A stretch of DNA of 64,000 nucleotides from Thermoanaerobaculia bacterium (GCA_963719365.1 OY970380.1:3005885-3069884); one strand, 5' to 3'. Shown: positions 7,792 to 63,155, counted from the first letter of the stretch. Numbers and translations: made by a program. The notes: a model not told the origin generated them from the sequence alone.

Positions 7792-7911
7792 GGGGTGTGG
7801 GGAGTTGGGCGTGGGGTGTGGGAGAGCAGAGACAAGAGATCAGAGGCGAGAAACAGGGATCGCCAGAGACAAAGGCCGCTAATCGCTGTCTCTGATCTCT
7901 TGTCTCTGCTC
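7792..7911. repeat. heptad-periodic palindromic element with a G-tract-rich 5' part
   Basis: The sequence reads as 7-nt units: GGGGTGT GGGGAGT TGGGCGT GGGGTGT GGGAGAG CAGAGAC AAGAGAT CAGAGGC... A perfect 22-bp stem pairs 7824-7845 (gagcagagacaagagatcagag) with 7890-7911, leaving a 44-nt loop. Confidence 0.85.
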
Positions 7912-7914
7912 AGG

Positions 7915-8451
7915 TCAGCGCGACGCGGGCTTGGCGGCTTGCGCTTCCGGAACCCGCTTCATGACGCACGTCGCCGCGCCGTGATCGTGAAAGGGCATGA
8001 ACAAGAGTGCCAATCCCCGTTCGTCGAATTCGGATGAGATCGTCAGCATGTCGCGCTGCGGCGAGAGACGAATCGTCAACGTGCGCGTGCGGCTCGATGC
8101 ACCGGCGAGGATCGAGGAAGTCGTCTTCTCCGGCGACCACGTTGCTGAGACTCCGTCGTCCATCCAGTCGAGATCGTGATCGAGAATCGCGTCGTACGTC
8201 TTGCCGCCATCGCCCTTTGCTTGAAGCTCGATCCGGCAGCCCGGTTGCGCGATCGTCAGCGTTTCGATCTTCGCGAGCGATGCTCCATCCCCGAACACAA
8301 ACGAGGCAGAGCCCGTGCCTTTGCGAACCGGTTGTTGCGCCAGTTTGTAGGTTCCGGAGAGGTCGATGCACGCTGGCCCTTTCGGCTGCGAAGCGCACGT
8401 GAGCGCCGCCAACGCGAGGAGTGCCGCAACGATCCGCATCGACGGCATCAT
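7915..8451 (-). CDS. putative lipoprotein, function unknown
   Basis: The internal start MMPSMRIVAALLALAALTCASQ has a signal peptide and a lipobox (LTC). The longer 279-aa ORF would overlap the permease gene on the opposite strand. Confidence 0.6.
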   Translation of the reverse strand: MMPSMRIVAALLALAALTCASQPKGPACIDLSGTYKLAQQPVRKGTGSASFVFGDGASLAKIETLTIAQPGCRIELQAKGDGGKTYDAILDHDLDWMDDGVSATWSPEKTTSSILAGASSRTRTLTIRLSPQRDMLTISSEFDERGLALLFMPFHDHGAATCVMKRVPEAQAAKPASR

Positions 8452-8503
8452 ACGCCGCGATACTTGACCCTCCGCCGCGGCGCGCCCATGATTCGCGGCA
8501 CAC

Positions 8504-10078
8504 ATGTCCGTGATCAGCCGCCTCTTCGCAACGAAATCGCTCGACGACCTCATCGCCGGAACCCAGGAAGAGGGCCACCAGCTCAAGAAAACCCTCGGCC
8601 CATGGAACCTGATCGCGCTCGGCATCGGCGCGATCATCGGTGCCGGCATTTTCGCCACGATCGGAACCGCTGCCGCCGGTGACGCGCACCGCCCTGGCGC
8701 AGGTCCGGCGCTGATGATCTCGTTCGTCCTCACCGCCGTCGTCTGCGGATTCACGGCGCTCTGTTACGCCGAGTTCGCGTCGATGGTGCCTGTGTCGGGC
8801 TCGGCGTACACGTACTCGTACGCGACGCTCGGCGAGCTCGTGGCGTGGATCATCGGCTGGGATCTGATGATCGAGTACGCCATCGGCAACGTCGCCGTCG
8901 CCATCTCCTGGGCGAATTACATGAACACGCTGCTGGAGGGATTCGGCATCGTCCTGCCCGGTTGGCTGACCGTCGACTACGGCACAGCGATGTCGAAGAT
9001 GCCGCAAGTCGTGGCCGCGGCGCCGCACATCTTCGGCTTTCCGATCATCTTCAACATTCTCGCGGTCGGCATCGTCACGCTGATCACGATCGTGCTTGTG
9101 TGGGGCATCCGCGAGGCGGCCAGCTTCAACTTCTGGATGGTGGCCATCAAGCTCGCCGTGCTCGCCTTCTTCGTCTTCGTCAGTTTCAAGTACGTCAAGC
9201 CGGCGCACTGGCATCCGTTCGCGCCAAACGGCTTTCACGGTATCGCCACCGGCGCGGCAATCGTCTTCTTTGCCTACATCGGCTTCGATGCCGTTTCGAC
9301 GACAGCCGAGGAGGCGAAGAATCCGAAGAGGGATATGCCGATTGGGATCATCGGCTCGCTCATCATCTGCACGATCATCTACGCGATCATCGCCGCGGTC
9401 TTCACCGGCATGATCCCGTACGGCGACCTTGTGAAGAAACTCTCCAGCGAGCAAGCCGAGCCGCTGACGCTGGCGATGAAGTACGCAACGATGCCGAACT
9501 GGATGGTGGGCGTTGTGGCGTTCGGTTCCGTCGTCGCTCACACCGCCGTACTCCTCGTGTTTCAGCTCGGTCAGCCGCGCATTTTCTTCGCCATGTCGCG
9601 CGACGGACTGCTGCCGCCGTTCTTCGCCCGCGTCCATCCGAAGTTCCGCACACCGCACGTAGCCACGATCATCACCGGCATCTTCGTCGGTATTGCCGCG
9701 CTCTTCTCGTCGCTCGATGCGATGGTCGATCTGACGAACATCGGAACGCTCTTCGCGTTTTTCCTTGTCTGCATCGGCATCATCATCCTTCGCGTCAAAG
9801 ACCCGCACCGCGAGCGCTCGTTCAAGGTTCCCGGCGGCACATGGTTCCTCCCCGTGCTCGGCGCGGCGTCATGCCTCTTCCTGGCAAAGTACCTCCCGAA
9901 AGAATCGTGGTGGCGCTTCGGCATCTGGCTGCTCGTCGGGATGGTCGTGTACCTCTCATACGGCTATCGCAACAGCAAGCTGCGTAATCGAGGCAACGGC
10001 CCGCTCCTCCCACCTGGCGGCATGGTGCGGCACGACTTCAACCCCGAGCAGCAGTGGCCGGAGAAGGATGTGGAGTAG
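8504..10078 (+). CDS. APC-superfamily amino acid permease (cationic amino acid transporter-like)
   Basis: 524 aa with about 12-14 TM segments. The N-terminal region LKKTLGPWNLIALGIGAIIGAGIFATIG is characteristic of AA_permease_2/CAT proteins. Confidence 0.88.
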   Translation: MSVISRLFATKSLDDLIAGTQEEGHQLKKTLGPWNLIALGIGAIIGAGIFATIGTAAAGDAHRPGAGPALMISFVLTAVVCGFTALCYAEFASMVPVSGSAYTYSYATLGELVAWIIGWDLMIEYAIGNVAVAISWANYMNTLLEGFGIVLPGWLTVDYGTAMSKMPQVVAAAPHIFGFPIIFNILAVGIVTLITIVLVWGIREAASFNFWMVAIKLAVLAFFVFVSFKYVKPAHWHPFAPNGFHGIATGAAIVFFAYIGFDAVSTTAEEAKNPKRDMPIGIIGSLIICTIIYAIIAAVFTGMIPYGDLVKKLSSEQAEPLTLAMKYATMPNWMVGVVAFGSVVAHTAVLLVFQLGQPRIFFAMSRDGLLPPFFARVHPKFRTPHVATIITGIFVGIAALFSSLDAMVDLTNIGTLFAFFLVCIGIIILRVKDPHRERSFKVPGGTWFLPVLGAASCLFLAKYLPKESWWRFGIWLLVGMVVYLSYGYRNSKLRNRGNGPLLPPGGMVRHDFNPEQQWPEKDVE

Positions 10079-62287: not shown

Positions 62288-62991
62288 ACTTCAAACGTGT
62301 CTTTCTGATGATCTCGATGACGCTGGCCCTCTGCGGTGCGGCGCTTGCCGAAACTGTAGGCGAGCCTGCCGCGGCAACGGATGCCAAGCCGGCGCTGTCC
62401 GTGCGCTCGTTTACGTTCAAGTTCAAGCAGGCCGACAAAGCTGCCGCCGCGATTAAGCCGCTTCTGAGCGCCGAGGGGTCGATGTCGATCCAGCCGTCGG
62501 CGAATGCGCTTGTTGTCACTGACCACGCCGAGAACATGAAAGCCGTCGCCAAAATGATCGGCGACTTCGACAAAGAGCCGCAGAGTTTTCGTCTTTACGT
62601 CCGCATCGTCGGCGCCTCGCGCGTCGAAGGGGCGGCGAAGATTCCTGACGATCTCAAAGATGTCGCCCGCAAGCTGTCCATGCTTCCGTACAACACGTAC
62701 GAGGCTGTCGGCGAAGCGACCGTGCAGGGAAAAGAAGGCGATCCGGGACTCATCGACATGCCCAGCGGCTACCGGGCCGGCTTCCACTTCGGCGAATACG
62801 ATCCGGCGAGCGATTCGATCGCGGTCAAAGACCTGCAGATCTCGAAACTCACCGGCGCACAAAAGGATCAGTTGACGTCGCTGCTCAAGACCTCGCTGAA
62901 CCTGACCATTGGCCAGACTTACATTCTCGGCGCATCGAAGGCTCCGCAAAGCCAGCGTGCGCTGATGATCGTCCTCGTCGCTCGACGGTAG
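62284..62991 (+). CDS. secreted protein of unknown function (secretin-N/NolW-like fold suspected)
   Basis: 235 aa with a signal peptide. Its start overlaps the anti-sigma stop (ATGA). Confidence 0.55.
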   Translation: MNFKRVFLMISMTLALCGAALAETVGEPAAATDAKPALSVRSFTFKFKQADKAAAAIKPLLSAEGSMSIQPSANALVVTDHAENMKAVAKMIGDFDKEPQSFRLYVRIVGASRVEGAAKIPDDLKDVARKLSMLPYNTYEAVGEATVQGKEGDPGLIDMPSGYRAGFHFGEYDPASDSIAVKDLQISKLTGAQKDQLTSLLKTSLNLTIGQTYILGASKAPQSQRALMIVLVARR

Positions 62992-63015
62992 AGCGGCGTC
63001 CTCTCCTACGCATCC

Positions 63016-63054
63016 GGGCGCGGCGGATTCACCCTCCTGCCGCGCCCTTTTTTT
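63016..63054 (+). terminator. Rho-independent terminator
   Basis: A 9-bp GC stem GGGCGCGGC/GCCGCGCCC with a 14-nt loop is followed by T7. Confidence 0.75.
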
Positions 63055-63065
63055 AGTGGCCTCGT

Positions 63066-63155
63066 AGTGGATTAGTAGATCAGTGGATTCGTCGATCAGG
63101 AGTACAAGCCCTGCGGATTGACCGATCCACGAATCGACTAATCTACTAATCCACT
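63066..63155. repeat. heptad-periodic palindromic element (GTGGATT/AGTAGAT units)
   Basis: A perfect 15-bp outer stem pairs agtggattagtagat (63066-63080) with 63141-63155. The inner arms are related but have shuffled heptads. Confidence 0.8.

Follow-up and report, generated by a model that had tools for sequence, protein, structure and literature searches.

The stretch of DNA analysed here, from a soil acidobacterium of the class Thermoanaerobaculia (GCA_963719365.1 OY970380.1:3005885-3069884, 64,000 nt; hereafter the window), raises the question of what kind of repeat makes a palindrome whose two arms are themselves short tandem arrays. A first-pass annotation of this DNA had listed at least ten loci in which a tandem array of a 7-9-nt unit is followed by a spacer and then by the inverted array, and had assigned them to no known repeat family. 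We find that these tandem-arm hairpins are a non-chance architecture of array, spacer and inverted array, that they are multi-copy within and between genomes, and that orthologous gene junctions hold one in some genomes and none in others, with each arm changing by whole units independently of the other. These results suggest that they represent a poorly described class of bacterial repeats, akin to the "junk" palindromes known as repetitive extragenic palindromes (REPs) and lying between, and sometimes inside, genes.

Periodic-arm hairpins and their unit families

The window was scanned with Tandem Repeats Finder (TRF) for arrays and with an inverted-repeat finder for arms, and hairpins were scored with a custom detector that takes ungapped inverted repeats first and then scores the periodicity of their arms, with 100 dinucleotide shuffles as the null. 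Eleven hairpins scored 13 or more, against a shuffle mean of 1.13, and seven scored 20 or more, a value reached by none in the 100 shuffles. Moreover, both arms were periodic at the same period (7 or 8 nt) in seven window hairpins, where 0.03 were expected from the shuffles. Judging from these counts, nearly every strong hairpin of the window has repetitive arms, the excess goes beyond what composition would give, and the architecture first described is genuine. TRF and the inverted-repeat finder together delimited four hairpins of period 7 (21503-21591, 27004-27118, 27948-28024 and 30054-30149) and two of period 8 (37603-37830, with an 8-mer, and 63066-63155, with an 8/16-mer). Folded as single-stranded DNA (ssDNA), the window elements had energies between -21 and -76 kcal/mol and z-scores between -3.7 and -10.6, and Rfam and tRNA scans of the window, the former proposed in the first-pass annotation, returned no matches. 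The periodic hairpins are the following:

21496-21598: site A, GAATGTT family; left arm of about 5.7 units, right arm of about 3-4 (TRF, inverted repeats, detector and fold)
27004-27118: site B, GAATGTT family; DNA fold -38 kcal/mol, z -10.2
27948-28024: GGGAGTC/GGGAGTT hairpin, in frame in the coding sequence (CDS) 27636-30035
30054-30149: GACAATT/GATAATT hairpin, filling the spacer of the convergent genes 27636-30035 (+) and 30156-31265 (-)
37603-37830: GGTTGCCN octamer hairpin, roughly 10 units in one arm and roughly 6 in the other, with a loop of some 65-100 nt
63066-63155: hairpin of period 8/16 with arms AGTGGATT AGTAGATC, between 62284-62991 (+) and the next gene
7824-7911: AGAGACA/AGAGATC-family hairpin, perfect 22-nt arms, weak period 7

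Sites A and B have a basal stem (AGCGGAATG...CATTCCGCTTCTTC) in common; site A is bracketed by the stop of the amidohydrolase gene (21608, minus strand) and the start of the allantoicase gene (21477), and site B lies 20 nt past the MarR stop, upstream of the xanthine dehydrogenase Mo subunit. The octamer hairpin 37603-37830, upstream of an amine oxidase gene (37865-39154), folds at -76 kcal/mol (z -8.8), and the detector aligns its arms in 8 registers. The 19-mer that had been reported as identical at 7891-7909 and 60160-60178 is exactly so, and its reverse complement occurs also at 7826-7844; 7824-7911, 60160-60200 and positions 5777-5940 of the related locus L005 belong to one family (AGAGACA/AGAGATC). 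An assembly artefact is ruled out, since 27948-28024 is reproduced exactly in an independent Logan assembly (L001, a short contig and the only one of this strain recovered), orthologous hairpin copies are present in independent metagenome-assembled genomes (MAGs), and a chromosome-level 6.6-Mb MAG assembly (L010) carries the same kind of element.

The ten loci had been presented as one kind. This was borne out for the six periodic hairpins and the weakly periodic 7824-7911, but four loci are other things, described in the last section: 35932 is a BIME-like triplet (BIME, bacterial interspersed mosaic element), 48746 and 7780 are non-periodic and REP-like, and 58090-60200 is a nested composite with an insertion sequence (IS) of the IS4 family. 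Likewise, the locus given as 7792-7911 retains its perfect 22-nt inverted repeat at 7824-7911 and loses 7792-7822, which is a separate solo array, and the CGGAATG/CATTCCG ends attributed to several elements had mixed two unrelated families together.

The xanthine dehydrogenase large subunit (24596-27085, minus strand) has up to 95% protein identity to those of Thermoanaerobaculia MAGs (Acidobacteriota), and we used 80 loci orthologous to its gene, with 10-kb flanks (about 1.3 Mb, labelled with L-numbers), as a comparison set. In these the detector found 68 periodic-arm hairpins. They occurred in about half of the Thermoanaerobaculia/Acidobacteriota loci, including one Blastocatellia locus, and almost all of the hairpins were there; it found none in 11 Vampirovibrionia, Obscuribacter-like, Clostridia or cyanobacterial loci and none in the Proteobacteria- and Rhodothermales-labelled ones. 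Leaving out the duplicate contig L001 and adding the window, we obtained a set of 73 elements with periods of 7 (n=51), 8 (n=17) and 9 (n=5), a median of 4.7 units per arm and a median loop of 20 nt. The arms differed by at least one unit in 25 of the 73, in agreement with the unequal copy numbers noted at the outset. A TRF census over 1.15 Mb of the related loci gave 7 arrays of period 4, 5 of period 5, 33 of period 6, 143 of period 7, 59 of period 8, 42 of period 9, 5 of period 10 and 6 of period 11. An inverted partner lay no more than 220 nt away for 114/143 period-7 and 46/59 period-8 arrays, against 1/120 in a relocation control; the period-6 arrays mostly, and about half of those of period 9, were solo and within predicted genes. 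With some 80% of period-7/8 arrays inversely paired, the 7-8-nt repeats of this lineage are essentially only halves of hairpins.

The units had been thought to differ at each locus. At least six different ones are indeed present in the 64 kb, but the units group into families (GAATGTT, TTCACGCGGAG-octamers, AGAGACA) whose basal stems are conserved and which recur within genomes, across genomes and across phyla, so that the apparent locus-specificity is largely a sampling effect of a window of this size. GAATGTT was found at two window sites and in L002, L004, L008 and L077, the last with two copies that have their own basal stem, ACGRGGAATG; AGAGACA at two window sites and in L005; and GAAGGCA in three copies within 22 kb of L063. 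GGGAGTC, GAAnGCA, AGTCKCAA and the TTCACGCGGAG-octamers were each found in more than one genome, and the octamer family TTTCACGCGGAG(NCGCGGAG)n...CTCCGCGTGAAA is present in 8 of the related-locus genomes. Copies of a family in Thermoanaerobaculia have arms and basal stem in common, but not loops. Related units (GAACGCA, GAAGGCA, GAATGCA, AAATGCA) vary at a single position, with the change carried by every repeat in either arm, and single-linkage clustering at one mismatch yields 33 unit clusters among the 73 elements, a count that is only indicative because the procedure over-merges unrelated 7-mers.

Outside the comparison set, a metagenome scan for three GAATGTT units returned at least 120 stretches, and the full hairpin was present in 38 of 80 that were fetched (GC 0.34-0.68), in two configurations, of which the AACATTC-first one has A and T tracts at its flanks. 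In one lineage of low GC (about 0.46; L202-L251, from IMG/VR sample 3300045988, and L104 and L149), with at most two GAATGTT hairpins per fetched stretch, the loop is conserved between copies (tgcctaacggactcaa..gcgctagccta), which marks these as a classical copy-and-paste family resembling MITEs (transposable elements of the miniature inverted-repeat type). The octamer family was found in 70 IMG/VR contigs (GC 0.56-0.74) and in plasmids of Sphingomonas, Sphingobium, Novosphingobium, Sphingopyxis and Gemmatirosa, and GAATGTT arrays in IMG/VR contigs as well as in Segatella and Kovacikia plasmids. Searching the literature by sequence motif turned up no report of these hairpin families. In the Segatella copri plasmid NZ_CP085933.1 (L323 1199-1250) the GAATGTT array is solo, within a short stem AGGAAT...ATTCCT and not as an inverted pair, and fills the spacer between a "smalltalk protein" and an amidase gene; thus, GAATGTT also exists as a direct array in Bacteroidota.

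Gene junctions and coding sequences

The window is colinear with L002 at 92% nucleotide identity, and all four elements that the two share keep their site and unit. The orthologous copies differ mainly by indels of about unit size (7 or 14 nt) that affect either of the two arms, the pattern expected of replication slippage working on each arm by itself. Thus, site A differs in L002 by 7- and 14-nt unit indels, and site B by about 7 nt per arm, which the aligner splits into 2+5 and 4+3, while at the 30054 site L002 has two tandem hairpins of the GACAATT/GATAATT unit. Elsewhere among the relatives, the site A junction is a 4-7-nt gene overlap, and the position of site B is taken in L003 and L005 by unrelated hairpins.

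Junctions were compared where synteny allowed, namely xdh/next gene, next/third gene and amidohydrolase/allantoicase (66 instances). Genes were called by codon usage and the called start codons are approximate, so that the junction statistics use homology-anchored starts. These three conserved junctions are bimodal: in 29/66 the two genes overlap by 1-7 nt or more (for the most part as ATGA or GTGA), and another 29/66 have a spacer of 45 nt or longer, which without exception (29/29) folds into a strong hairpin, with dG from -19.5 to -166 kcal/mol. At occupied junctions the 5' base of the stem contains or adjoins the stop codon and the start codon lies a median of 6 nt past the 3' base, with both codons within about 12-15 nt of the stem base in 23/29. 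The sister species L043/L055 and L050/L054 have unit and loop in common, and distant species show at the same junctions other units, non-periodic REP-like hairpins or a gene overlap. We rejected the idea that every unit carries a stop codon, as GGGAGTC, GGTTGCC, GAACGCA and others have none.

As to wider context, 47 of 75 periodic elements lie between co-directional genes, 8 between convergent and 7 between divergent ones, 10 "inside" gene calls and 3 at the end of a contig (the intergenic background comprising 329 co-directional, 87 convergent and 116 divergent regions). The claim that the elements sit in all gene contexts, one CDS included, therefore holds, the CDS being the conserved one that contains 27948-28024.

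Two elements demonstrably lie in frame within conserved coding sequence. The CDS 27636-30035 encodes a membrane protein with a C-terminal DUF4214, and the hairpin 27948-28024 adds about 20 residues to a loop of it; its flanks are conserved as codons in L002, L003 and L005, and L005 is short by exactly 60 nt. The other is an octamer hairpin in frame in a xanthine-dehydrogenase subunit of L010 (8801-8865; 60 nt) and L008 (6660-6728; 78 nt), in the 2Fe-2S domain between VTVEGL and LHPVQ; L012, L006 and L011 are without it. At this same site L013 (around 4300) has the right arm only, apparently out of frame.

Origin, function and known relatives of the hairpins

We believe that the most plausible reading, to which we give about an even chance (probability roughly 0.5), is that these are dispersed hairpins similar to REPs and to REPINs (REP doublets forming hairpins), with minisatellite arms that evolve by slippage, and that they are tolerated where the base of the stem brings stop and start together again or where an in-frame peptide fits a loop. 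In each family the basal stem is conserved and the inner stretch of either arm is a 7-9-nt minisatellite, and the hairpin, most likely as ssDNA during replication, would be both the entity that is propagated and the promoter of slippage. The elements would be tolerated rather than required: at former ATGA overlaps the stem base could reunite the upstream stop with the downstream start, so that translational coupling can survive, and inside proteins the length of the insertion would stay a multiple of three and fall in a loop. The flanking direct repeats of the 73 elements were within permutation expectation and none reached 4 nt; this absence of a target-site duplication (TSD) argues against a DDE-type MITE and is compatible with mobilisation of the HUH/RAYT type (RAYT, REP-associated tyrosine transposase) or with template switching. 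Dispersal would then be due either to an HUH/Y1 (RAYT/IS200-like) enzyme acting on hairpins or to template switching during replication. As in REPs, the palindromes are multi-copy and mainly extragenic, with 62/75 elements intergenic and stems recurring at several loci and genomes.

Several observations weigh against this reading. Tolerance by juxtaposition is something that we infer and that may not hold, and no part of the dispersed-hairpin model accounts for the unit length of 7-8 nt. A Y1/HUH transposase (Y1_Tnp) was absent among the window open reading frames (ORFs) scanned against Pfam (most, not all, gene calls), and the only IS of the window, an IS4 with the terminal inverted repeat (TIR) CAATGGCCTTAACTTAAG, has ends unrelated to every hairpin terminus. 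The Thermoanaerobaculia family copies, with no loops in common, are unusual for copy-and-paste elements. GAATGTT occupies the same junction in the window clade and in the distant L077, with an overlap in intermediate lineages, so that site preference, many precise losses or local generation would be needed. The outermost units, too, often hold the native stop and its complement (TGAAGAAC...GTTCTTCA; ATGAAGG...CCTTCAT), and fold-back copying of local sequence would also give such stop-bearing units. Finally, the test of arm-to-arm copying was weak: a block shuffle of mirrored unit order gave only a slight excess (13% of elements at p≤0.05), confounded by basal-stem blocks.

Some of these observations would also fit a local genesis without mobility, in which a template switch copies adjacent sequence inversely, the arms expand by slippage and further switches make them symmetrical again; the hairpin being born from adjacent native sequence, this sequence would dictate the unit. 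Template switching can make and keep hairpins in a single step (PMC8794818), and such an origin would agree with the missing TSD, with native stop codons and their complements as outermost stem pairs at several junctions, with the same unit at the same junction in distant lineages, with loops unrelated between copies and with mirrored unit-variant order in some elements (e.g. L028), as well as with the xdhA-like site, where the inserted palindrome has a native CGTGAA within its right arm and L013 retains a single arm. We nevertheless regard it as possible but clearly the less probable origin, since unrelated loci of one genome share both the unit and the non-repetitive basal stem (window sites A and B, two copies in L077, three in L063), families span very different taxa with GC from 0.34 to 0.74, Sphingomonadaceae and Gemmatirosa included, one lineage conserves the loop between copies, and the mirroring of unit variants is weak overall. 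Going beyond both, tandem-arm hairpins might form a distinct self-propagating class of DNA across phyla that drives its own spread and its growth by 7-8 nt, a proposal that we put forward tentatively and think rather doubtful. If true, they would spread by template switching or by an HUH enzyme reading structure and not sequence, both of which leave no TSD; they would account for the excess of heptamer repeats long noted in bacteria; and they would survive preferentially at stop/start overlaps, where the stem puts the codons side by side again and coupling is preserved.

It could also be argued that the hairpins are selected RNA elements (U-tract-independent terminators or attenuators, 3'-end stabilisers or RNase III sites tuning neighbour genes) whose repetitive arms would give a mutation-robust stem. 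The stems are long and stable, 47 of the 62 intergenic elements lie between co-directional genes, directly past stop codons, sister species retain element and unit, and the metagenomic AACATTC-first versions with their A/T tracts resemble bidirectional terminators. Canonical terminators, however, are not enriched in the window (17 terminator-like sites versus 17.3 expected), and the general lack of T-tracts that had been reported holds for most elements; intrinsic terminators call for a short-looped, GC-rich stem and a U-tract behind it where the transcription unit ends, and among the elements the scan for them matches only the inner hairpin of 35932-36016, and some other type of terminator is conceivable. 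G·U pairs are no commoner in the sense (125) than in the antisense strand (116; p=0.6) and folding energies are equal, some elements sit in divergent promoter regions or in frame within a CDS, they are often absent from close relatives, and most lie within conserved operons at junctions that in relatives are overlapping, translationally coupled genes. We therefore rejected intrinsic terminators; the data suggest that the hairpins are not primarily terminators, and a selected RNA role, above all a sense-strand one, seems to us unlikely. Still more improbable are cooperative binding arrays for a protein with a footprint of about 7 nt, such as a cold-shock/OB-fold protein on single strands or one of the IHF/HU type: the period is sharply centred on 7-8 nt, CspB takes one heptamer per monomer (discussed in PMC4679880) and IHF/HU binding has been proposed for paired tandem-repeat sites in Geobacter (PMC2700814), but no single sequence-specific binder could serve the dozens of unrelated units in one genome, no associated gene was detected, and the pattern of presence and absence resembles that of dispensable DNA.

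The dispersed-hairpin reading can also be set against known systems. Cyanobacterial short tandemly repeated repetitive (STRR) sequences had been named as the nearest phenomenon, but Xanthomonas (PMC4692102), Geobacter (PMC2700814) and REP/REPIN (PMC3116915) are closer, and the paired-array architecture is already noted in the first two, with one or few units and no mechanism. In Xanthomonas campestris and X. citri, GGGAATC heptamer arrays form convergent opposite-strand pairs, 70-75 per genome (Rehm et al. 2015, PMC4692102). These are similarly mostly intergenic and unassigned in function, with a copy number that varies between species while the pair type is kept; they differ in consisting of one G-rich genome-wide unit, studied as a G-quadruplex former, whereas here there are dozens of units, mostly not G-quadruplex-capable, and neither CDS insertion nor junction occupancy is described there. 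The paired "global regulator binding sites" (classes 1-3) of Geobacter metallireducens (Aklujkar et al. 2009, PMC2700814) also lie on opposite strands at variable distance, with 3-5 tandem 7-9-nt repeats (TCTCCGTS[Y], MTYCTGA) and tens of copies, some inside operons (e.g. between proB and proA) and some with IS elements beside them. In contrast to our elements they make up three or four families, and were read as IHF/HU binding sites without a test and without evolutionary analysis. Our elements resemble both systems in having two 7-9-nt arrays on opposite strands within about 200 nt (114/143 and 46/59 paired) and depart from them in having at least six units in the window instead of one or few per genome.

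REPs, BIMEs and REPINs (PMC3116915, PMC3733652) are likewise families of short extragenic palindromes, REPINs being hairpin-forming inverted doublets, and are found at 3' ends and between cistrons, strain-variable, TSD-free and targeted by IS elements; the GTCATYCCGAGCG family and the 35932 cluster of the window both resemble classical REP/BIME. Their arms, however, are unique sequences of 20-40 nt and not tandem 7-9-nt units, and a conserved GTAG or CGTC tetranucleotide marks the 5' end of REP palindromes (PMC3733652). Our elements have no such tag, their termini starting with AGCGGAATG, TTTCACGCGGAG, GAGCAGAGAC, GTCATYCCGAGCG and others, and no RAYT was found among the scanned window ORFs. 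STRR and the TAACTGA repeats of Beggiatoa and cyanobacteria are intergenic tandem heptamers with a period-7 excess and a patchy distribution across phyla (PMC4679880). They resemble ours in these features, the excess being unexplained, but number one or a few units per genome and form direct arrays with rare exceptions (169 direct sets versus one inverted, in the "Maribeggiatoa" genome). Membership of cyanobacterial STRR, whose STRR1-3 heptamers stand as direct tandem arrays in heterocystous species, was rejected: the host is an acidobacterium, the units differ, and the arrays are inverted pairs rather than solo and direct. Integron attC sites, imperfect palindromes with R''/L''-L'/R' sites (RYYYAAC...GTTRRRY) that follow each cassette beside an IntI gene, were rejected too, as only GAATGTT fits GTTRRRY (as GTTGAAT) and the elements lie among genes of conserved syntenic operons instead of cassettes; a single tyrosine recombinase was found, and it looks XerC/D-like. 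So was an origin from rhizobium-specific intergenic mosaic elements (RIME) or plasmids, which the GC content had suggested, a megablast of 20 kb against plasmids having given nothing relevant and the relatives being Thermoanaerobaculia.

That many bacteria have an excess of heptamer repeats has been known since 2007, and to our knowledge no mechanism for it has been established. Two further systems share single features with the hairpins. Foldback (FB) transposons of Drosophila and other eukaryotes have long terminal inverted repeats made of tandem short repeats, with unequal arms and a variable central loop; unlike the hairpins described here, they are eukaryotic, kilobase-sized, transposase-associated and TSD-producing. 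Rickettsia palindromic elements (RPEs) lie in frame in conserved protein genes, where the added peptide is tolerated in a surface loop, but consist of 100-150 bp of unique sequence without tandem-repeat arms. With almost all 7-8-nt arrays of this lineage being hairpin halves, the heptamer excess is tied to the biology of palindromes, and near-universal pairing, very diverse units and the junction and in-CDS patterns make a long-standing puzzle testable in a concrete system. The families in cultivable Sphingomonadaceae and Gemmatirosa, the bimodal junctions and the in-frame enzyme insertions could serve as markers for hairpin-driven mutagenesis, junction evolution and translational coupling. 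In practice, tandem-arm hairpins break short-read assemblies, and they mislead gene callers, since ORFs run into their arms.

Other repeats and genes of the window

The loci set apart above, which are not periodic-arm hairpins, are as follows:

7780-7822 (+): solo left end of the REP-like family GTCATYCCGAGCG plus a GGGGTGT x4.4 array
48746-48862: complete non-periodic REP-like copy (GTCATTCCGA...TCGGAATGAC), directly upstream of the SPFH gene start 48856
35932-36016: BIME-like cluster of 3 copies (2 direct, 1 inverted) of the self-complementary unit GTCGGACTCTCCAGTCCGAC, between convergent genes
58119-60200: nested composite of AGAGACA-type arms, long palindrome, inner inverted repeat and IS4
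58285-59693 (+): IS4-family IS, transposase 58335-59522 (Nterm_IS4 and DDE_Tnp_1)

The GGGGTGT array at 7792-7822 is solo, joined to a half copy GTCATTCCTAGCGG, and not part of the adjacent hairpin 7824-7911. The 7780 and 48746 loci belong to one non-periodic REP-like family (GTCATYCCGAGCG), the 14-mer of which was found at 56 places in the related loci L002-L081 with up to two mismatches; about half of these are clear element ends and several look like chance matches within coding sequence. This family, with ends GTCATYCCGAGCG...CGCTCGGRATGAC, is widespread in acidobacterial loci and occupies the same kinds of gene junction as the periodic hairpins, and in L022 and L076 its end supplies or abuts a stop codon. 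The unit of the 35932-36016 cluster is 20-23 nt long, so that this is not a heptamer array, and the cluster is flanked by an ACGTAGG...CCTACGT outer stem and by T/A tracts.

In the composite, the outermost layer is formed by diverged AGAGACA-type arms at about 58119-58140 and at 60128-60200, the right one carrying the 19-mer. The palindrome and the IS apparently lie in the loop of this AGAGACA-type hairpin, as judged from a pairing of one weak 14-nt match. Within it is a palindromic element of about 500 nt (58201-58284 / 59694-60117), unlike the heptamer hairpins in type and built of arms some 85-115 nt long (58201-58284 and 60029-60117), with an inner 30-nt perfect inverted repeat (59693-59722 / 60000-60029) that encloses a 22-nt tandem array at 59755-59865 (5 copies of GATCTCCCGGTCTTCTGATTCT). 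The IS, with a perfect 18-bp TIR and an 11-bp TSD (GCCTGAAGGCG), is inserted exactly in a small palindrome, CCCCCGCCTGAAGGCGGGGG, of this larger element, and hence appears to target hairpin DNA.

Of the genes around the hairpins, those at 19658-27085 form a purine-degradation cluster with HIU hydrolase, an allantoicase fused to OHCU decarboxylase, an allantoinase-like amidohydrolase and the xanthine dehydrogenase Mo subunit, with the MarR regulator upstream. Between its xanthine dehydrogenase and amidohydrolase genes, a 1.65-kb segment (22948-24594) with a DUF5131 (phage Gp37/Gp68-like) gene and an ORF without Pfam match is missing from the otherwise colinear L002, where about 750 nt of unrelated sequence replace it. 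Adjoining the 7780-7911 repeat cluster, an aldehyde dehydrogenase (6268-7709, minus strand) is split over two overlapping frames and is thus probably a frameshifted pseudogene. Elsewhere in the window, a SocA/Panacea-domain antitoxin gene lies at 40697-41134, and a DnaB replicative helicase gene (42744-45179) is split by an intein that carries a LAGLIDADG homing endonuclease domain.

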